A DNA stretch of 64,000 nt from Candidatus Pyrohabitans jungbluthii (GTDB lineage Archaea; Hydrothermarchaeota; Hydrothermarchaeia; Hydrothermarchaeales; BMS3B): contig MTMD02000002.1 of the NCBI GenBank assembly GCA_002010065.2, forward strand, positions 32,001 to 96,000. The letters are read 5' to 3'. Below the pieces are notes generated by a model. That model had not been told where the DNA came from. It saw only the letters and a list, made by a program, of their open reading frames with translations, and did no database searches. Below are positions 49,249-57,672 of this stretch, in pieces (position 1 is the stretch's first letter; each line of letters opens with the position of its first letter). Both the position numbers and the translations under genes were made by a program.

Positions 49249-49294
49249 GCTAAGAATAATGCCAAAAAATAACAACCTCAATCTATAGAAGCAG

Positions 49295-49945
49295 CTAAAG
49301 CTCACAACTCTCTTTTGTGCAGGTGCCTGTAGCTTTGCCTGTTTCAGCTGGGGAATCGCCAAGAGCCTTTACCAGATCCTCATAGGTCTGGAGCCCGCTG
49401 AGCAGTTTACCATTGATAATAAAAGTGGGAACGGCATAAACTCCATAAGACTCTGCCAGTTTTAGATTCTCTTCGAATCTCTCTCTGGCAGTGTTTTTGA
49501 GGAAAGCATCTATCTCACTCTTGGATATTCCAAGCTCCCTCAGGTAGCCGTAAAGTCTTGCCCTATCGCTTATATCGATCCCCCTAACCCAGTAGTCCCG
49601 GTATACTCTGTCGTTAAACTCTTTGAATACTCCCCTATCCTTTGCAAGCTCCGTAAGAAGAAGGGCAAGATGTGAGTTGCTGAACCTCTCGGGGATGTTT
49701 ATTTCCACACCGAGCTGAAGTGCACGTTTTTTTATCTCACCCACAATAACATCTATATAATCCTCATCAAAACCCATCTCCAGAAGCGTCATGCCTCCTT
49801 CTGGTATTTCCGGATGAATCTCGTATCCTATCCACTCTAGCTGAACGTCATGATTCTCCACCAGCTTGTCCAGCGCCTTTTTGCTCAGATAGCAGAATGG
49901 GCAGGAGTAATCTGAAAAAACGATGACTTTGTTCATGTATTTCAC
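49295..49945 (-). CDS. DsbA/FrnE-family thiol oxidoreductase
   Basis: FSDYSCPFCY, YEIHPE, GVYAVPTFIING; C-terminal CTKESC. Confidence 0.92.
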   Translation of the reverse strand: MKYMNKVIVFSDYSCPFCYLSKKALDKLVENHDVQLEWIGYEIHPEIPEGGMTLLEMGFDEDYIDVIVGEIKKRALQLGVEINIPERFSNSHLALLLTELAKDRGVFKEFNDRVYRDYWVRGIDISDRARLYGYLRELGISKSEIDAFLKNTARERFEENLKLAESYGVYAVPTFIINGKLLSGLQTYEDLVKALGDSPAETGKATGTCTKESCEL

Positions 49946-49970
49946 CCGCGGTATGGCATCACCTAACGAG

Positions 49971-50219
49971 CTAACTTTTCTCTCTGATCTTAATTAGATA
50001 GATAAATTTCCCGTCCTCTTCACTCATATCTAAGAGCTCATTTCCAGTATGCTTAACCCACGCTGGAATGTCTTTTCTGGTGCCCAAATCAGTGGCTATG
50101 ACCTTTAGAACCTTCCCTGCTTCCATTTTGGATAATGCCTGTTTGACTCTAAAAATTGGCATGGGGCAAGCCATGCCAGAAACATCCAGCACCTCATCAG
50201 CTTCTATCAAGCCTCTCAC
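49971..50219 (-). CDS. tusA: Sulfur carrier TusA family
   Basis: LDVSGMACPMP, ATDLGTRKDIPAW. Confidence 0.93.
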   Translation of the reverse strand: MRGLIEADEVLDVSGMACPMPIFRVKQALSKMEAGKVLKVIATDLGTRKDIPAWVKHTGNELLDMSEEDGKFIYLIKIREKS

Positions 50220-50221
50220 CC

Positions 50222-50638
50222 TCAGAACGTAAGGACGACGTCTGCCTTCTGAGCCTTTTCCAGGAGGAACCAGGTTGCTCCGACGATGTCCTCAGCCTCA
50301 GGCACAAGGTTCTCCTTGGTAACGTCAAAAATCTGCGCAGCAAGGCTGCACACGTACATCCTTACCTTCCCTGTAGCCTTCAGCGCCTTGATAATCTCGT
50401 ACACGTCTGTGGGAAGCCCAGCCTCAGCCACCTTAGCCTTTATCATCTCATCGCTGCCTTCATGCTCCTTTGAGACCTTCAGATTCTCTGCACCACCTTT
50501 TGTCAGTACTCTGGCAGCCCAGTTTACGAACAGTATGTCAACCTCCATGTCAGAGGCGGCCCCGAGGTAGGCGAAAGCCAGAGGGGTCAAAATTCTATCG
50601 TATGCATCTTCCCTTACAATTATTGCCAGTCTCTTCAT
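50222..50638 (-). CDS. DsrE/DsrE2-family sulfurtransferase-like protein
   Basis: GAASDMEVDILFVNWA, MYVCSLA, IVGATWFL. Confidence 0.85.
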   Translation of the reverse strand: MKRLAIIVREDAYDRILTPLAFAYLGAASDMEVDILFVNWAARVLTKGGAENLKVSKEHEGSDEMIKAKVAEAGLPTDVYEIIKALKATGKVRMYVCSLAAQIFDVTKENLVPEAEDIVGATWFLLEKAQKADVVLTF

Positions 50639-50654
50639 ATCTTTTCCTCCTATC

Positions 50655-50670
50655 GAACGAACGTTCGTTC
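50655..50670. promoter_or_regulatory. Perfect 16-bp palindrome GAACGAACGTTCGTTC, putative TetR operator
   Basis: Self-complementary; lies just upstream of the dsrE RBS and downstream of tetR. Confidence 0.65.
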
Positions 50671-50707
50671 TATTGTAGAATAATAACCTGTGAAAAACAA
50701 CTTGAAA

Positions 50708-51286
50708 CTACCTTCTCAGCGCCCTCCAGCAGGAATCAAGAGTCTCATCCACATAATTTAAAAGGCTGTCCCGAATAACACCGTCCAGCTTTAGGGTTAT
50801 CAGCCTGATTGGAAGCCCCATTAAAGTTGCAGTTGCCAGCAGGGGGTCCATTTCCCTGATTTCCCCCTTTACAATGGCATCCGATACTATTTCCATGATA
50901 TAGTCAAATGGTTTAGAGGAACAGATAGTGCGGTTGTCCCTCAGGATTTCTCTGTGCTTTACATACAGGGCATACTCCATAATATCTGGGTACTCATCGG
51001 TAAGCCTGTAGAATACTTCAATAATCCTCCTGAATTTCTCTTTAACATCTTTTTCATCGCCGAGTGCCTCTTTCAGGTTTTTCATGAGAAACTGTACTGT
51101 ATCGTTGTAGAGGTACTCCGCAATATCTTCTTTTCCGTCAAAGTAGTGATATATCGCCCCTATGCTTAGCCCAGCCTCCCGCGAGATGTCCCGAATGGAG
51201 GTGTTAAAATACCCCTTTCTTGTGAAAAGTCTCCGGGCAGTTTTAATGATTTTACCTTTTGTTTCTGTGTCCATCTGAGACCTCAT
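50708..51286 (-). CDS. TetR/AcrR-family transcriptional regulator
   Basis: ARRLFTRKGYFNTSIRDISREAGLSIGAIYHYFDGKE. Confidence 0.96.
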   Translation of the reverse strand: MRSQMDTETKGKIIKTARRLFTRKGYFNTSIRDISREAGLSIGAIYHYFDGKEDIAEYLYNDTVQFLMKNLKEALGDEKDVKEKFRRIIEVFYRLTDEYPDIMEYALYVKHREILRDNRTICSSKPFDYIMEIVSDAIVKGEIREMDPLLATATLMGLPIRLITLKLDGVIRDSLLNYVDETLDSCWRALRR

Positions 51287-51364
51287 TTGTCTTACACCAG
51301 GTGGAGGTGCGAAATAATAACTTCTTCTAAAGGTTTGAGCAATTAAGAATAAAAATATTATGCG

Positions 51365-52264
51365 CTAGTCAATCATCCCGCCGGCACGCATCGCTCGCCG
51401 TGCTTTCTCAGCTATCTCCTCAGGCACGCGAACCTCTGGTGCGAGGTCTTCAAGGCACCACAACACCTTGGCGGCGTCGGTCAGCTTGTGGTTGCTGCAG
51501 CTTGCGCGCTCACTGGGGAAGTAGAATCGCTTTTCAGGAAACTCCCTCTCAAGGCGGTGCTTCATTCCTATCTCAGTGGCGACGATGAACTCCTCGCTGG
51601 GCGAGGCTCTGATGTGCTCCACCATTTGCTGTGTGTCAAGCACGTGGTCCGCGAGCGCAATCACGTCGCCCCTGCACTGAGGATGGACGAGCACCTCTGC
51701 ATTAGCGTGAGCCTCCTTAAGCCTTGAGACCTCACTGGCGAGAATACGCACATGGGGCGGACAGTACCCTTCAGCGATGATTAAATCTTTGCCGCTGGTG
51801 TTGCGGAGATAGCTCCCCACGTACTGGTCGGGCAGGAATATCGCCTTTTCGTTGAGTTCTGAGAGCACGCGAAGCGCTTTGCTGTGGTTGCATATGTAGT
51901 CGCACGCAGCATACTGCTCTGCCCTGGCTTTAATGTAGCCAACAACCTTCGCCTCGGGTGAGCGTTCTTTAATGCCCGCGATCTGCTCCACGCTCACCAT
52001 AGCCACCATGGGGCAGCGCGCCTCAGCGCTGGGAATGAGCACCTTCTTGTCAGGATTTAAAATCGCAATAAGCTCCGCCATGAAATCAATGCCGCACGCC
52101 ACAACCACGCTTGCATTGCTCTTCTGGGCAAAAAGGGCACATTCGAATTTATTCCCCACGAAGTCCGCTAAGTCCTGCACATCACCGGGTTGAAAATTGT
52201 GCGCCACTATTATGGCGTTGTGCTCCTCCTTGAGCTTCTCAATCCTGCGCTCAAGCTTAGCTAT
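51365..52264 (-). CDS. NadA (quinolinate synthase)-fold [4Fe-4S] protein with divergent active site
   Basis: AHNFQ, DFMAE, LNPDKKVLIP..ARCPM, GYCPPH, HPQC, ATEIGM, ASCSNHK; homology continues upstream to ATA 52264. Confidence 0.85.
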   Translation of the reverse strand: MAKLERRIEKLKEEHNAIIVAHNFQPGDVQDLADFVGNKFECALFAQKSNASVVVACGIDFMAELIAILNPDKKVLIPSAEARCPMVAMVSVEQIAGIKERSPEAKVVGYIKARAEQYAACDYICNHSKALRVLSELNEKAIFLPDQYVGSYLRNTSGKDLIIAEGYCPPHVRILASEVSRLKEAHANAEVLVHPQCRGDVIALADHVLDTQQMVEHIRASPSEEFIVATEIGMKHRLEREFPEKRFYFPSERASCSNHKLTDAAKVLWCLEDLAPEVRVPEEIAEKARRAMRAGGMID

Positions 52265-52634
52265 ACTCCTGCCCCCTGTAGTTGGCGATCGCCTTCTTCA
52301 GAGCGCGCACGCCAACTTCCTTGCAGCACCTGTTTATCTCAGGTAAGCCCCCCGCGGCGCGCTCTATATCGGCTAAGCCAAGCTCAGCCGCCTCCTTCAC
52401 GCTCTTACCCTCTGCCAGGCTTGCCAGTATTTCGCTGCTTGCTATGGCGGCGGCGCAGTTGTACGCCTGGAAGCGCGCCTCCTTTATCACGTCACCCTCA
52501 ACTTTGATGTAAAACTCCACCTCGTCGTCGCAGAGGGGGTGTACTTCTTTGCCCACGCCGCTGGCATCGCTCAGCATGCCCTCATGCCTAGCCTCGCGAA
52601 GTATTCGAGCGACCTCTTCACCCCTCAGAGGCAT
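52257..52634 (-). CDS. IscU/NifU-N-like scaffold paralog
   Basis: HPLCDD, YNCAAAIASS, GGLPEINRCC. Confidence 0.88.
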   Translation of the reverse strand: MPLRGEEVARILREARHEGMLSDASGVGKEVHPLCDDEVEFYIKVEGDVIKEARFQAYNCAAAIASSEILASLAEGKSVKEAAELGLADIERAAGGLPEINRCCKEVGVRALKKAIANYRGQEYS

Positions 52635-53025
52635 CTCCCTTCCCCGCTTTTTTCTTCTTGTAGTCCTCGATTGCTGCCTTCAAGCCATCGCTGGCGAGAA
52701 GCGAGCAGTGCATCTTTATCGGCGGGAGCCCGCCAACCGCGTCGGCGACATCCTCTTTGCTTATCTTCGCCGCCTCCTCCAGGGTTTTGCCCTTGGCAAG
52801 CTCCGTCACCATGCTACTCGTGCCTATTGCTGCGGCACAGCCAAAGGTCTCAAACTTTATGTCCTCGATTATCTCCTCGCCCTTTTCGTTCTTCCCGACT
52901 TTAATGTAGATGTACATCACGTCCCCGCACGCGGGGTTTCCCACCTTGCCCACGCCGTCGGGGTTCTCCATCCTCCCCATATTCCTGGGGTTTCTAAAGT
53001 GGTCTATCAAGGTTTTGCTATACAT
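52618..53025 (-). CDS. iscU: Fe-S cluster scaffold IscU/NifU
   Basis: YSKTLIDHFRNPRN, GNPACGD, FGCAAAI, LPPIKMHCS. Confidence 0.97.
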   Translation of the reverse strand: MYSKTLIDHFRNPRNMGRMENPDGVGKVGNPACGDVMYIYIKVGKNEKGEEIIEDIKFETFGCAAAIGTSSMVTELAKGKTLEEAAKISKEDVADAVGGLPPIKMHCSLLASDGLKAAIEDYKKKKAGKGDASEG

Positions 53026-54229
53026 GGCAGTGCTCGCCTCCTTTCCATTCTGTTCCCTCTACGTAATCCTCAAAGCTGTCCTTAAATGGCGATATATCGC
53101 GCAGGCGCTTAACCACGCGGGGCAGGACTTCAAGCAGGCGCTGCACATCTTCGCGGGTGGAAAACCTGCCAAGCGTGACGCGAAGCGAACCATGCGCCTC
53201 GGCGTGGCTCAGCCCTATCGCCGTTAAAACATGGCTCGGCTCAAGCGTTGGCGAGGAGCACGCGCTGCCTGTGCTCGCGCTTATGCCCTCGAAGTCCAGC
53301 TCCAGTATCAACCCCTCGCCCTCTATGAATGCAAAGGCGAAGTTCGCGTTGCCGGGGAGGCGCTGCTTGGGATGCCCGTTTAAGCGGGTGCGCGGTATCT
53401 TCAGCACCTCCTTAATAAGCTCGTCTCGAAGTTTTGTCAGGCGCTCCGTTTCGTCCTTCATCTCTTTCTTCGCTATCTCCGCTGCCTTGCCAAAGCCAAC
53501 TATGCCGGGGACGTTCTCAGTGCCGGAGCGCAGCTTTCTCTCCTGCCCGCCTCCATGAAACAGGGGCTCAAGTCTTGTGCCCCTAGCTACGAAGAGGGCG
53601 CCTATGCCCTTGGGACCATACATCTTGTGTGCACTCATGGCGAGCATGTCCACGCCAAGCTCTTCAACGTCTATCGCCACCTGACCGTTGCTTATGCACG
53701 CGTCGCTGAAGAAGGCAACGCCCTTATCCTGCGCCACCTCCGCAAGCTCCTTTATGGGCTCTATTGTACCTATCTCGTTGTTTGCGTGGTTGATTATGGC
53801 TAAGATGGTATCGCTGTTAATTGCATCCTCCAGCGTCTCGGGCTTAACGAGACCATATTCGTCCACATCTAGGTAAGAAACCTCAAACCCCTGCTTCTCG
53901 AGCCAACGGCACGCCTCAAGCACAGCAAAGTGCTCTATCTTGGAAACAACTATATGCTTTCCCTTGTTCTTATTCTTCAGCGCAAACCCCTTTATGGCAA
54001 GGTTGCACGCCTCTGTGCCGCCAGAGGTGAAGATTATCTCCTCGGGCGAGGCGTTTATCAGCTCAGCAACCTTAGCTCGAGCCTCCTCTACGGCTGCCTT
54101 TGCCTCCTGCCCAAATGAGTAAAAGCTGGTTGGGTTGCCGTACTTCTCAGTGAAGTAGGGCAGCATCGCCTCAACCACGCGTTCGTCCACCGGCGTAGTC
54201 GAGGCGTAGTCGAGGTACACTCTCCTCAT
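53018..54229 (-). CDS. iscS: Cysteine desulfurase IscS/NifS
   Basis: YLDYASTTP, FTSGGTE, NNEIGT, SAHKMYGPKG, RSGTEN, STGSACSS. Confidence 0.96.
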   Translation of the reverse strand: MRRVYLDYASTTPVDERVVEAMLPYFTEKYGNPTSFYSFGQEAKAAVEEARAKVAELINASPEEIIFTSGGTEACNLAIKGFALKNKNKGKHIVVSKIEHFAVLEACRWLEKQGFEVSYLDVDEYGLVKPETLEDAINSDTILAIINHANNEIGTIEPIKELAEVAQDKGVAFFSDACISNGQVAIDVEELGVDMLAMSAHKMYGPKGIGALFVARGTRLEPLFHGGGQERKLRSGTENVPGIVGFGKAAEIAKKEMKDETERLTKLRDELIKEVLKIPRTRLNGHPKQRLPGNANFAFAFIEGEGLILELDFEGISASTGSACSSPTLEPSHVLTAIGLSHAEAHGSLRVTLGRFSTREDVQRLLEVLPRVVKRLRDISPFKDSFEDYVEGTEWKGGEHCHV

Positions 54230-54230
54230 C

Positions 54231-54461
54231 TTAAACTTTCCTCCTTATGTACGCTTTTATTATCCCGCCTTCTCGCGCATAGCCAAGATACTCGTTCCCG
54301 GTTACACGGCACCAGGCAGGGAGGTCTTCAATTATATCTTCGTCGTCTGCAACTATCTCCAGAACTTCCCCGACGGCAAGCTTTTGCAAAGCTTCGCCAG
54401 CCTTTGCGAGAGGCACAGGGCAGTGCATACCCACGCAGTCCACGCTGAGCTTTGCCTTCAT
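54231..54461 (-). CDS. tusA: Sulfur carrier TusA family
   Basis: VDCVGMHCPVP, DLPAWCRVTGN. Confidence 0.92.
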   Translation of the reverse strand: MKAKLSVDCVGMHCPVPLAKAGEALQKLAVGEVLEIVADDEDIIEDLPAWCRVTGNEYLGYAREGGIIKAYIRRKV

Positions 54462-55594
54462 CTCTCCCGCAACCTGTTTATAACCTCCCCCGCCTCCTGC
54501 GCAACCCGCGCTACGTCTGCCTCGCTCGTGGGGATGCCGAAGGAGAAGAGCATGGCACCGCGGATTAGCTCCTGGGATAAGCCCATCGCCGCAAGCACGT
54601 GGCTCGCCTTCGCTGCTCGAGCCATGCAGGGCGAACCCGAGGTTATGTATATTCCTCGTGAGCTGAGCTCAGCCACGACAGCCTCGCCCTCTACCCCAGG
54701 GACGCTAATGTGCACATACATGGGGTTAACTTCGCTCGGGTGCCCGTTTATCTTGGCTTCGGGCACCTCACGGCGCAGCGCCTCTATAAACTTGCTCCTC
54801 AGCGTGCGCAGCTTCTCTAGGCGCTGCGACATCTCCCTCTCAGCCAGCTCTGCTGCCTTTCCCATGCCCACTATTCCTGCGACGTTTTCGGTGCCCGCTC
54901 TGTAACCGCGCTCTTGTATGCCGCCCTCTATCTGGGGCAGAAGCCTTACTCCACGAGCTAAATAAAGCGCTCCCACACCCTTAGGGCCATAGAAGCGGTG
55001 CGCCGAAAGGGTGTAGATATCTACGCCCAGCTCTTCCACCTTAGCGGGCACTATGCCAGCGGCGCTGACGCCGTCGCAGTGAAATGTTATCCCCCGCTCC
55101 TCGGCGATTTCGGCAATCTCCTTAATCGGCTGGAGGGTGCCCACCTCGTGGTTGGCGTGCTGCACAGAGATTAAAATCGTGTCGTCGCGAATCGCCTTCT
55201 CAAGCTCCTCCACGTTAACGCGGCCGTGCTCGTCAACGCCCACGCGGGTAACCTGCACCCCCTCGCGGGCTAAGCTCTGGAGCGGATGCATTATGGAGTA
55301 GTGCTCCACCGCAGAGATAACCACATGCCTCCCCCTCGCCTTATTAGCCTGAATCACGCCTTTAATCGCTAAGTTGTTTGCCTCCGCCCCGCCGGAGGTG
55401 AAGACTATCTCCTCGCTCCTCGCCCCCAAAAGCTGGGCTACCTTCTCCCTTGCCCCCTCCACAGCGCGCCTCGCTTTGAGCGCAAAGTCGTGCAGATTGG
55501 AGGGGTTCGCGTAGAGCTCGTCGAAGTACGGAAGCATCTCCTGCTTTACCTCTTGCAGCACAGGAGTAGAAGAGGCGTAGTCTGCGTAAATCAT
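54458..55594 (-). CDS. IscS-like protein lacking the PLP Schiff-base lysine
   Basis: YADYASSTP, FTSGGAEANN, SAHRFYGPKG, RAGTEN, TSGSPC; ATG 55594 after GAGGAG. Confidence 0.92.
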   Translation of the reverse strand: MIYADYASSTPVLQEVKQEMLPYFDELYANPSNLHDFALKARRAVEGAREKVAQLLGARSEEIVFTSGGAEANNLAIKGVIQANKARGRHVVISAVEHYSIMHPLQSLAREGVQVTRVGVDEHGRVNVEELEKAIRDDTILISVQHANHEVGTLQPIKEIAEIAEERGITFHCDGVSAAGIVPAKVEELGVDIYTLSAHRFYGPKGVGALYLARGVRLLPQIEGGIQERGYRAGTENVAGIVGMGKAAELAEREMSQRLEKLRTLRSKFIEALRREVPEAKINGHPSEVNPMYVHISVPGVEGEAVVAELSSRGIYITSGSPCMARAAKASHVLAAMGLSQELIRGAMLFSFGIPTSEADVARVAQEAGEVINRLRER

Positions 55595-55677
55595 TCTCCT
55601 CGCCTGAATAACGCTGCTCCTTCCCATCGCAAAATTGTTTGGAAAGGTTTAAGCAGCTTTAGTCAACATTCTGGTGC

Positions 55678-56493
55678 ATGCTCTACCTTATCCTCGCCTC
55701 ATTGATATGGGGAACCACGCCCATAGTGGCGAAGCTTGCGTATGCTCAGGGCATCTCACCCTTGGCGCTGGTCGAGGTGAGGCTTGTCGTGGGCGCGCTC
55801 CTCTTCGCCTTTTATCTCCGCAGCTTTCGCATGGAGCACCTCCTCAGTAAAGAGCTCCTCGCCCTCGCGCTTTTAGGCTTAGCCGCCAACTTCCTCTTCT
55901 ACCACTTGGCTGTGAAGCACACCTCTGCGGCGGCGGCGCAGGTGCTGGAAAGCACCTCCGTAGCCTTCGCTGCTCTCTTCGCCTACCTTCTGCGGGAGGA
56001 GAGGCTGAGCCAGCGCAAGCTCCTCGCCATAACCGCGAGCTTAGCAGGCTCAGCGCTTATATTCTACTCCCACGCCTCTGGTAGTAACCTGTTTGGCGAC
56101 ACCCTTGCAATTCTGGCGGCGCTAACCTGGGCGCTCTTCACTGTGCTTGCCTCACGTTTGCTTGCCTCGCTTCGCGAGGAGGAAGTGCTCCTGCTTGTCT
56201 TTACTATAGCTGCGCTCGCGTTGCTACCCTTCGCCGCAGCTTCGCCAGTGATAACCCTGAACGGCGCTTTGATTGCGTTTGCCATGGGGGCTGTGCACAC
56301 CTTCCTTGCCTACCTTCTCTACTTTCGGGGCATCGCGAGGGCGAAGGCTATTGCAGCTAGCATAGCTTTTGCTCTTTCGCCTGTGGTTGCGATAGCACTT
56401 TCTGCGCTACTCCTGCATGAGATGCTCACTCCAGCGTTTTACGCGGGCGCTGCTCTGATCATAGGCGGCATCCTCGTGGCAAGGGCGAGATAG
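55678..56493 (+). CDS. DMT/EamA-family transporter
   Basis: LIWGT, two EamA repeats, LREERL, HTFLAYLLY. Confidence 0.93.
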   Translation: MLYLILASLIWGTTPIVAKLAYAQGISPLALVEVRLVVGALLFAFYLRSFRMEHLLSKELLALALLGLAANFLFYHLAVKHTSAAAAQVLESTSVAFAALFAYLLREERLSQRKLLAITASLAGSALIFYSHASGSNLFGDTLAILAALTWALFTVLASRLLASLREEEVLLLVFTIAALALLPFAAASPVITLNGALIAFAMGAVHTFLAYLLYFRGIARAKAIAASIAFALSPVVAIALSALLLHEMLTPAFYAGAALIIGGILVARAR

Positions 56494-56526: not shown

Positions 56527-57672
56527 ATGGAGATAATCACCACCTTCCCCCGCGGTCTGCGCTACGCGTGCACACTCGAGAGCTGCTTCACCTGCTGCTC
56601 CCTCTTCGAGGACATCCCGGTTACCATCGAGGAGATAAAGCGGGTGAAGGCGCTGGGGTATAAGGATTTTTACGAGGCACGGAGCGGGCGATACTTCATA
56701 AAGAAGCCCTGCACCTTCCTTGAAGACAAGCTGTGCTCTCTTCACAGGGAGCACGGCAAAGCCAAGAAGTTCATGACCTGCCGCAAGTATCCTTTCTCGG
56801 CGAGCGTGCTTGACAACGGGAGCGTAATCGTCGACGTGAAGTGGACATGCCCTGGCGTGGGGTTTGAGGGTGGAGAGGAGATAACCGAGGCGCTGCTTAG
56901 AGAAGAGTTTCTGGAAGACCTTCTCAAAGGCGGAGCAGAGGAGATAAAGCGAGGCGAGGTGGTTTACCTGCACAGCCCGAGCGGGCAGCGCATCCCGTGG
57001 GGAGCGCTTGTGAAGCTTCACTCAGGCATAGCCGAAGCCCTTGCTGGGGAGGGATTCTACGATACCCTGCTTTTGCTCACCGCTGCGGTGCGCCACCTGG
57101 GCAGCAACCTGGGTGGGAAGAGCTTTGTCTCCGAAAGCGACGCTGCCTCAGCCCTGGAAAGCTTCGAGGCGCGGTATCGCCAGGAGAGGGAGGCGTTGCT
57201 CCGCGAAGTAAAGGCGCAGGCACAGGTGGCGGTGGATATCCTTACAATATACGACTATTTTGATGAACTCTTTGAGTACGAGATTAACCCTGGCTACGCG
57301 GCGAAGAAACTGGGTATAGCAGAGGAGCTGGAGTTCGACGAGGACTTCGCCCGGCTCTTCTCCAAGCCTATATCCGCTGAAGCTCAGCGCTTGCTTGCCA
57401 TGCACACCAGGCAGAGCTTCATGGAGACTTTAGCAAGACCTTGGGATTTGCCCTCAGCCTACTTCTGGACCCTGGGCGTGGCCTGCGTCGCCGACTACTT
57501 AGCAAGGCTGCTTTCAAGCGATGAGGTTACCCGCGACGACGCGCGAAAGGCGCTCAGCATAGTGGACTTCCTCAACAAGCACTTCCGCTCCTTCCGCGAT
57601 TACTACTTCCCCCGCTACCCGGAGCTGGGAATGCAGTACCTGCAATTCCTGCTGGGTGGGGTGCTTGAATAG
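56527..57672 (+). CDS. YkgJ-family cysteine-cluster protein with helical C-terminal domain
   Basis: CTLESCFTCC, PCTFL..LCSLH, TCRKYPF, CPG. Confidence 0.85.
   Translation: MEIITTFPRGLRYACTLESCFTCCSLFEDIPVTIEEIKRVKALGYKDFYEARSGRYFIKKPCTFLEDKLCSLHREHGKAKKFMTCRKYPFSASVLDNGSVIVDVKWTCPGVGFEGGEEITEALLREEFLEDLLKGGAEEIKRGEVVYLHSPSGQRIPWGALVKLHSGIAEALAGEGFYDTLLLLTAAVRHLGSNLGGKSFVSESDAASALESFEARYRQEREALLREVKAQAQVAVDILTIYDYFDELFEYEINPGYAAKKLGIAEELEFDEDFARLFSKPISAEAQRLLAMHTRQSFMETLARPWDLPSAYFWTLGVACVADYLARLLSSDEVTRDDARKALSIVDFLNKHFRSFRDYYFPRYPELGMQYLQFLLGGVLE

Follow-up and report, generated by a model that had tools for sequence, protein, structure and literature searches.

In Escherichia coli, tusA lies outside the isc operon, and plant SufE3 is a fusion of SufE with NadA, a protein that shares its fold type with IspH and Dph2. 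Among the five prokaryotic systems that assemble iron-sulfur (Fe-S) clusters, MIS, the minimal iron-sulfur system made up of MisS and MisU, is the least studied, and in the part of the source consulted its electron donor and carriers are given as unknown (PMC13066941). The same excerpt cites direct cluster assembly on NadA by a dedicated NifS in Bacillus subtilis. In archaea, the IscS of Archaeoglobus fulgidus has no catalytic lysine and donates a cysteine ligand to a [2Fe-2S] cluster on IscU, and Methanosarcina acetivorans IscS1 likewise has no such lysine, according to the excerpt consulted of PMC7585200. Here we describe a six-gene operon, iscS*-tusA-iscS-iscU-iscU*-nadA* (asterisks mark non-canonical paralogs), from the deep-sea archaeon Candidatus Pyrohabitans jungbluthii; the closest database proteins carry the name of Candidatus Pyrohabitans, a genus of Candidatus Hydrothermarchaeota. 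The operon lies in a stretch of 64,000 nucleotides (the window), corresponding to positions 32001-96000 of contig C2 in a genome of 1.99 Mb that is 99.95% complete (G000). The locus was compared across 38 genomes of the phylum Hydrothermarchaeota, 11 of which belong to the window's family. The group is represented largely by fragmented metagenome-assembled genomes, in which a gene that was not found is not necessarily absent.

We consider it probable, if only just, that the locus is an enlarged MIS-type operon, in which an IscS/IscU core is joined by a non-catalytic IscS*, a tighter-binding IscU* and a neofunctionalised [4Fe-4S] NadA* that is still coupled to cluster-loading genes. The six open reading frames run head to tail on the minus strand over positions 51365-55594. 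Their coordinates bear out the overlaps of 4, 8 and 17 nt and the single 1-nt gap reported originally; the last overlap, of 8 nt between iscU* and nadA*, requires that nadA* start at an ATA codon at 52264. The original prediction presented the locus as an undescribed Fe-S or sulfur-relay system, which was an overstatement: the core is the known MIS, lysine-less IscS proteins had already been described, and linkage of nadA to iscS is widespread. At a threshold of 40% identity over more than 250 residues, an IscS-type gene lay within 700 bp of a canonical NadA gene at 13 of 76 loci from genomes and 7 of 80 from metagenomes, and within 5 kb at 16 and 14 of these, respectively; those of the 13 that carry titles are labelled Thermoplasmatota or Thermoplasmatales. 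Such nadA-iscS(-iscU) linkage around canonical NadA is thus not new.

The two IscS-type proteins share the class-V aminotransferase fold and differ at catalytic positions. At the site of the pyridoxal phosphate (PLP) lysine, which belongs to an SxHK motif, IscS reads AHKMYGPKG and IscS* reads AHRFYGPKG. All 10 IscS orthologs keep the lysine and are canonical at the substrate arginine, the loop and the C-terminal tail, whereas IscS* orthologs carry Arg (6 of 7) or His (1 of 7) in place of the lysine; the original prediction had noted the missing lysine in the window's copy. In all seven, Leu replaces the substrate arginine of the canonical GSLRVTLG motif, and a C-terminal tail of roughly 25 residues is missing from IscS*; we take the functions of this arginine and tail to be those of E. 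coli IscS. The mobile-loop cysteine, the persulfide-forming residue of IscS-type desulfurases, is kept in every aligned ortholog of both proteins, as SGSPC or GSPC in IscS* and GSACSS in IscS. For 14 database clusters from the IscS* clade, the residue at the lysine site is Arg in 11, His in 2 and Lys in 1, so that 13 have no lysine. Against the TIGR03402 NifS equivalog (cut-off 530.75 bits), IscS scores above the mark at 539.3 and IscS* below it at 439.6; IscS* matches the A. fulgidus IscS structure (PDB 4eb5) at 5.1e-98.

In a quick-method tree with long branches, IscS* formed a clade of nine rows (support 100). This clade grouped (99) with a third lysine-less IscS-like copy of the same genome and with IscS proteins of which some are source-labelled Chloroflexota or Dehalococcoidia, and the operon's IscS was sister (97) to IscS genes that lie beside canonical NadA at Thermoplasmatota-titled loci and untitled metagenome loci. 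A recent duplication of the neighbouring iscS was considered as the origin of IscS* and rejected, since the tree puts IscS* in a different IscS lineage. The third copy (contig C8, 42885-44039; 384 residues) has Thr at the PLP lysine and Ile at the substrate arginine, and an IscU-TusA-IscS locus in G035 encodes an IscS with Thr at the lysine position. Lysine-less copies of IscS are thus present more than once in the phylum. The contig C8 gene adjoins a gene for a 248-residue membrane protein, and a gene for a Cys-rich protein and a 114-residue open reading frame lie 0.5-1.5 kb further on.

The altered scaffold protein shows an equally focal change. IscU has the motif KMHCS and IscU* has N[RK]CCK, so that the His before the third cysteine, equivalent to His105, is replaced by Cys in all nine IscU* sequences and kept in all 10 IscU sequences, in agreement with the change first noted in the window. 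The Cys, Asp, Cys and Cys positions are intact in both proteins, and the N-terminal FRNPRN motif is altered in IscU*. Scores against TIGR03419 (cut-off 187.9 bits) were 184.9 for IscU and 92.3 for IscU*. A word-based search of 5.8 billion proteins returned 31 matches to IscU*, of which seven have Cys-Cys, all at least 61% identical to the query, and the other 24 have His-Cys. In the IscU tree, IscU* joins the second IscU copy (iscU') of three genomes from other Hydrothermarchaeota families (G013, G019 and G027; gene order iscS-iscU-iscU') on one side of a branch with support 96/98, and in these copies the His position is Lys or Glu. Their first motif reads C-E-D (loci L202, L201 and L203, respectively). 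Residues and tree together assign IscU* to a phylum-wide second IscU lineage with Cys, Lys or Glu in place of His. The original prediction held that each canonical component had an altered twin; altered, conserved paralogs are indeed present, but IscS* is not the twin of its neighbour and IscU* comes from this second lineage.

To compare NadA* with quinolinate synthases, we aligned it to the NadA of Pyrococcus horikoshii, whose numbering is used below unless NadA*'s own numbering is stated. The three cluster cysteines are invariant (C84, C168 and C256, own numbering), and the equivalents of His21, Tyr109, His173, His196 and Thr213 are retained. By contrast, Tyr23 is replaced by Phe, Ser38 by Lys, Asn111 by Lys, Glu198 by Gln and Met259 by His; Thr64 becomes Leu, Ile or Met, the Ser126 position is variable, and NadA* has a CPPH motif and a C-terminal ...GG.. 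tail. We take Tyr23, Ser38, Asn111, Ser126 and Glu198 to be catalytic or substrate residues of NadA. K39, K112, P169-P170, Q196 and H259 (own numbering) do not vary among the 12 aligned members. The earlier observation that NadA* keeps its cluster cysteines and has lost substrate residues extends to the whole set. Among structures in the Protein Data Bank (PDB), chain 6ora also has Gln at the Glu198 position, whereas 5ktm and 1wzu have Glu. PDB titles include a Y21F mutant and an S124A variant of NadA, presumably (in Thermotoga maritima numbering) variants at two of the positions changed in NadA*. A possible role for the ...GG.. motif as a ubiquitin-like sulfur-carrier tail was dropped, as the motif is not terminal.

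The rebuilt pocket sits in what is predicted to be an otherwise ordinary NadA fold. The model of NadA* has a predicted local distance difference test score (pLDDT) of 93.3 and matches NadA structures with template modelling (TM) scores of 0.91-0.94 at 36-41% identity. Its scores against curated NadA families straddle the cut-offs: 321.8 bits against 294 for NF006878, and 262.1 against 262.9 for TIGR00550. In the NadA tree (quick method, root not inferred, long branches flagged), the core NadA* clade of eight rows has support 99, and all 102 canonical NadA rows, the family's own among them, lie across a branch with support 100. IscS*, IscU* and NadA* thus each form a clade of their own, which answers a question posed with the original prediction. 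A predicted complex of IscU* with NadA* scored 0.00 against a mark of 0.32 and was used neither for nor against any reading.

The six-gene order is found in 6 of the 11 family genomes: G000, G002 (over two contigs), G004, G006, G008 and G010. G005 has iscS*-iscS-iscU-iscU*-nadA* with a 72-bp gap in place of tusA; G007 and G009 have iscS-iscU-iscU*-nadA* with iscS* on a separate contig; and in G001 and G003 contig ends cut the operon, so that parts of it are seen. In G011, from another family, only iscS-iscU-nadA* is present, without iscU*, and the IscS* query did not find IscS* there. Where present, tusA lies between iscS* and iscS (genera g1 and g3), with its Cys-Pro motif kept in all six orthologs. 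Across the phylum, NadA* was detected at E<=1e-70 in 9 of 38 genomes, with fragments in two more. Wherever the junction is visible, nadA* is coupled translationally to iscU* or iscU. The ratio of nonsynonymous to synonymous substitution (dN/dS) of the asterisked genes was 0.09-0.10 for the pair G000 and G004 and 0.17-0.28 for the pair G006 and G008, similar to the 0.07 and 0.20 of IscS in the same pairs, although these values are rough because dS is near 1. Their frames are intact in all orthologs seen. The order is therefore not peculiar to this assembly and the substitutions are conserved, contrary to what drift or pseudogenisation would have shown; the asterisked genes are conserved paralogs under purifying selection, each its own clade.

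The start codon of nadA* is unusual. The first in-frame ATG, GTG or TTG is the GTG at 52207, with none between the upstream stop and that position. The ATA at 52264 aligns with the ATG start of the orthologs in G009, G007, G005 and G011, and the nadA* start codon is likewise ATA in four genomes of two genera (G000, G004, G002 and G008). The 19 residues ahead of the GTG are conserved and are modelled as a helix (residues 2-14) and part of a strand (17-22). Furthermore, a contig (X5, record 20) from a sequencing run outside those marked as possible sources shows zero differences across 51737-53212. On the strength of the ortholog alignment, the conserved and structured 19 residues and the difference-free contig, we take the ATA at 52264 to be the true start of nadA* or a re-initiation point. 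The GTG was rejected as the start, given that the preceding residues are conserved, modelled as structured and aligned with ortholog Met starts. At 52262-52264 the ATA is nested in the last iscU* codons (...TAT AGC TAA) and follows a stretch rich in purines, GGGGGCAGGAG. In database entries the called start is 19 codons downstream (P0002, P0004) or lies further upstream (P0001, P0003).

The operon is the only recognisable Fe-S assembly system in the genome, since both IscU-family matches of the genome lie inside it and the SUFBD_core model for SufB/D has no match in G000, a genome 99.95% complete; the same model matched in 14 of 14 control genomes. Across the phylum, one genome of 38 has a SUFBD_core match, compared with 37 of 38 for IscU, and the phylum appears to rely on MIS alone. 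An account in which the extended operon replaces a SUF or SMS system lost in this family was rejected, because SufB/D is missing phylum-wide.

As originally reported, no nadC, nadX or nadB match lies within the window. A canonical nadA, which the original prediction had suggested looking for, is present about 400 kb from the operon (C2:486458-487324; 380 bits), together with nadC (C2:489209-489709) and an aspartate dehydrogenase domain, nadX (C2:489766-490029); the genome's best match to a nadB model, on contig C15, is below the cut-off. With canonical nadA, nadC and nadX present, the de novo NAD route is complete without NadA*. Six relatives (G002, G004, G006, G007, G008 and G009) each retain a further NadA, of canonical type and about 40% identical to NadA*. 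These results make it very unlikely that NadA* serves as the organism's quinolinate synthase.

How would the enlarged operon work? None of the catalytic and ligand residues examined is missing from IscS or IscU. IscS would form persulfide from cysteine, supplying IscU in cluster building and TusA in sulfur relay. IscS*, because both its PLP lysine and its substrate arginine are lost, would be unable to desulfurate cysteine, and it retains the mobile Cys loop. Most likely it acts as A. fulgidus IscS does, as a structural partner that lends a Cys ligand or accepts persulfide, with the His-less IscU* as its probable partner. Compared with a transfer scaffold, IscU* should bind a cluster more tightly through its fourth Cys, so it may be a carrier or redox centre. 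NadA* would be a neofunctionalised paralog of quinolinate synthase that retains a [4Fe-4S] cluster with one open iron; because acid/base and substrate residues have been exchanged for conserved Lys, Lys, Gln and His, it would act on or bind a different anionic ligand. Its labile cluster would be loaded by the products of iscSU, which would account for the lasting translational coupling, and the coupling may be inherited from an ancestral nadA-iscS-iscU arrangement.

Several observations weigh against this account. NadA* exceeds the NF006878 cut-off, so residual quinolinate synthase activity is possible. That IscS* pairs with IscU* is conjecture: neither accompanies the nadA* of G011, and in G009 iscS* is on another contig. 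The fourth-Cys idea is weakened as an explanation of the IscU* lineage, as other families carry Lys or Glu at that position. NadA* forms a long separate branch and is not placed with Thermoplasmatota-type NadA, which leaves its descent from an ancestral linked nadA putative. Finally, we infer the roles of IscS*, IscU* and NadA* from residues and genomic context.

Distinctly less probable is that NadA*, with IscS* and IscU*, is a working part of the sulfur or Fe-S machinery and not a client enzyme. The open iron of NadA* might, for example, bind hydrosulfide or persulfide from IscS, TusA or IscS*, making NadA* a persulfide-reducing, sulfide-holding or cluster-carrying protein. The invariable coupling of nadA* to iscU* or iscU speaks for this, as do the MIS electron donor, stated to be unknown in the excerpt consulted (PMC13066941), and the finding of no SUF or SMS in the phylum, where MIS must serve everything. 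Further points in its favour are P0363, a natural fusion of IscS and a NadA-like domain that shares the CPPH motif and has His at the Glu198 position; a NadA-like paralog in G022 beside two NIR_SIR genes and a cytochrome c gene; and a DsrE-TusA module downstream of the operon in G000 and genus g2, which adds sulfur-trafficking context. However, P0363 is a single one-member cluster and could have been merged in assembly or gene calling, G029 does not share the context seen in G022, and most of the phylum runs MIS without NadA*. We know of no chemistry of this kind for the NadA fold. The more specific proposal that NadA*-type proteins, with a Lys/Lys/Gln/His pocket around the open iron of the cluster, are a non-metabolic and hitherto unrecognised accessory component of MIS, and would join a non-catalytic IscS* and a tight-binding IscU* in reducing, holding or transferring sulfur or clusters, strikes us as doubtful to much the same degree, perhaps slightly more so.

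Still more improbable is that NadA* is a second, divergent quinolinate synthase isoenzyme kept beside cluster-loading genes. Its equivalog scores, its fold, its three cysteines and the five retained residue equivalents would suit such an enzyme. Nevertheless, the equivalents of Glu198, Asn111, Ser38 and Tyr23 are all replaced, and by the same residues in every aligned member; a canonical copy lies beside nadC and nadX, and six relatives also keep canonical-type copies; and the 102 canonical rows all fall on one side of the branch with support 100, apart from NadA*. That the asterisked genes are decaying duplicates or an assembly artefact, as the loss of catalytic residues in all three and the non-canonical ATA start might suggest, is hardly credible beside their intact frames, low dN/dS, conserved replacement residues, an ATA kept across two genera and an identical sequence in a contig of another run.

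Proteins like NadA* proved to be scarce. Of the 150 best representatives from a library of 1.84 billion proteins, only two carry the full signature, one more (P0272) is a near variant, and six match [H/S]PQC at the position of Glu198. A scan of genome contigs found the signature at four loci of the window's family (L037-L040) and at none of 76 other loci. The HPQC motif was found at none of 80 metagenome loci, all of canonical NadA, in a scan that was seeded with the NadA*-like P0008 and P0006 (non-Hydrothermarchaeota) using patterns from an N-terminal region common to canonical NadA. We found no description of a NadA paralog with such a rebuilt pocket in the literature searched, which did not include the primary MIS/SMS paper (Garcia et al.), whose supplements might list the operon type. 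We regard both the NadA* subfamily, with Lys, Lys, Gln and His at Ser38, Asn111, Glu198 and Met259, and the His-less IscU lineage as apparently new, rare and confined to the Hydrothermarchaeota group, with putative functions. The database names quinolinate synthase for NadA* and cysteine desulfurase for IscS* are probably wrong.

Other unusual NadA-like genes were seen in the course of these searches. In G022 (locus L205, contig C177, 2729-6883), a related paralog with the motifs AHNFQ, YVKA, CPPH and HPEC overlaps a cytochrome c gene and is the divergent neighbour of the two NIR_SIR (sulfite-reductase-type) genes. The fusion P0363, source-labelled Armatimonadota, has 717 residues; its IscS-type domain contains the Lys, and the NadA-like domain fused to it is non-canonical (AHNAQ, CPPH, HPHC). 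NadA domains are also fused to an FdhD sulfurtransferase (P0273) and to an Rrf2-type regulator (P0283). In G019 (locus L204, contig C3, 5638-8511), tandem NadA genes lie about 1.1 kb apart, one of them with an unusual third-Cys motif, GLCYKLK; motifs of this type (GLCYRLK, GLCHRLK) also occur at several Thermoplasmatales-titled loci.

Table 1. Genes of the operon and its surroundings (window coordinates).
Feature	Position	Strand	Description
DsbA-like	49295-49945	-	thioredoxin-fold protein; module 49295-51286
TusA2	49971-50219	-	module 49295-51286
DsrE-like	50222-50638	-	module 49295-51286
TetR regulator	50708-51286	-	module 49295-51286
nadA*	51365-52264	-	PF02445 NadA, 9e-86; ATA start inside the iscU* 3' end
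iscU*	52257-52634	-	PF01592 NifU_N, 1.5e-25; His to Cys (RCCK); four Cys and Asp
iscU	52618-53025	-	PF01592 NifU_N, 1.5e-45; canonical scaffold with Cys, Asp, Cys, His-Cys
iscS	53018-54229	-	PF00266 Aminotran_5, 2.9e-88; Lys, Cys loop GSACSS, Arg and C-terminal tail all present
tusA	54231-54461	-	PF01206 TusA, 6.5e-21; Cys-Pro motif GMHCPVP
iscS*	54458-55594	-	PF00266 Aminotran_5, 3.1e-78; alternative longer ATG start at 55627
EamA transporter	55678-56493		between iscS* and the CxxCxxCC gene in genus g1
CxxCxxCC protein	56527-57672	+	PF03692, putative Zn/Fe-chelating; 381 residues; divergent neighbour upstream of iscS*

The surroundings of the operon are in part conserved (Table 1). The gene for the CxxCxxCC protein also lies beside iscS* in G002, G004, G006, G008 and G010 (53-86% identity). 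On the other side, an AT-rich spacer of 78 bp separates nadA* from the TetR-DsrE-TusA2-DsbA module, which is probably its own transcription unit. The module is an indel among close relatives: the congener G004 lacks it at this place and has a DUF554 gene about 760 bp beyond nadA*, and it is also present 3' of nadA* in genus g2, with DNA 87% identical to that of G000 compared with about 70% for the operon. Between genus g2 and G000, the TetR and DsrE proteins are 96-97% identical and NadA* is 56% identical. The last 20 residues of G000 NadA* are closer to those of G009 than to those of G004. Positions 49281-51377, together with a tract from near 51840 inside nadA*, look like the product of recent lateral exchange or recombination. 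Elsewhere in the window, positions 1-2000 have a G+C fraction of 0.37, and most of the rest is at about 0.50-0.57 (0.47-0.58 overall).

Taken together, the MIS operon of one family has gained three conserved, selected, non-canonical paralogs, which are clonable candidates for the missing helper functions of MIS. With SufB/D so nearly absent from the phylum, MIS apparently matures every Fe-S protein there. If NadA* is an accessory component, it would supply a reductant or carrier function not known for MIS, in a phylum where no SUF or SMS backup was found. NadA* would also be a natural case of a [4Fe-4S] open-iron enzyme with a rebuilt pocket, whose ligand would extend NadA/IspH/Dph2-type chemistry. 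If NadA* is only a client enzyme, the locus still marks the widespread archaeal linkage of nadA, iscS and iscU.

How does the operon compare with the systems described before? Like MIS, it is archaeal and combines an IscS-type desulfurase with a single-domain IscU, and it lacks genes for chaperones, ferredoxin or an A-type carrier; unlike MIS, it adds iscS*, tusA, iscU* and nadA*. No SMS or SUF partner was found in G000 or in 37 of the 38 phylum genomes, whereas a number of archaeal species carry SMS together with MIS, according to the part consulted of PMC13066941. Like A. fulgidus IscS, IscS* has the IscS fold, a replaced lysine and a retained loop Cys, and is encoded with IscU. The lysine is Asp in A. 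fulgidus IscS (PDB 4eb5 and related entries) and Arg or His in IscS*, which has also lost the substrate arginine, and unlike the A. fulgidus protein IscS* shares its operon with an IscS predicted to be active, with tusA between them. The Cys-Pro TusA carrier recalls the IscS-TusA relay of E. coli, as described in excerpts of PMC2854127 and PMC11302665, and here it is encoded beside IscS-type genes; in contrast to E. coli, tusA is placed between the predicted inactive IscS* and IscS, and it is missing in G005.

The closest parallels to NadA* are the NifS-NadA pair of B. subtilis and SufE3, in which a NadA-fold [4Fe-4S] protein is likewise genetically tied to its own sulfur-donor genes. The NadA of those systems is a genuine quinolinate synthase and has nadB/nadC as partners, whereas NadA* has lost the catalytic set, and nadA, nadC and nadX lie elsewhere in the genome. 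Like the quinolinate synthases of known structure (PDB 5ktm, 1wzu, 4p3x and others), NadA* is predicted to have the three-domain fold and keeps three cluster Cys; unlike them, its catalytic and substrate positions are replaced, and its gene stands not beside nadB, nadX or nadC but at the end of a cluster-assembly operon.

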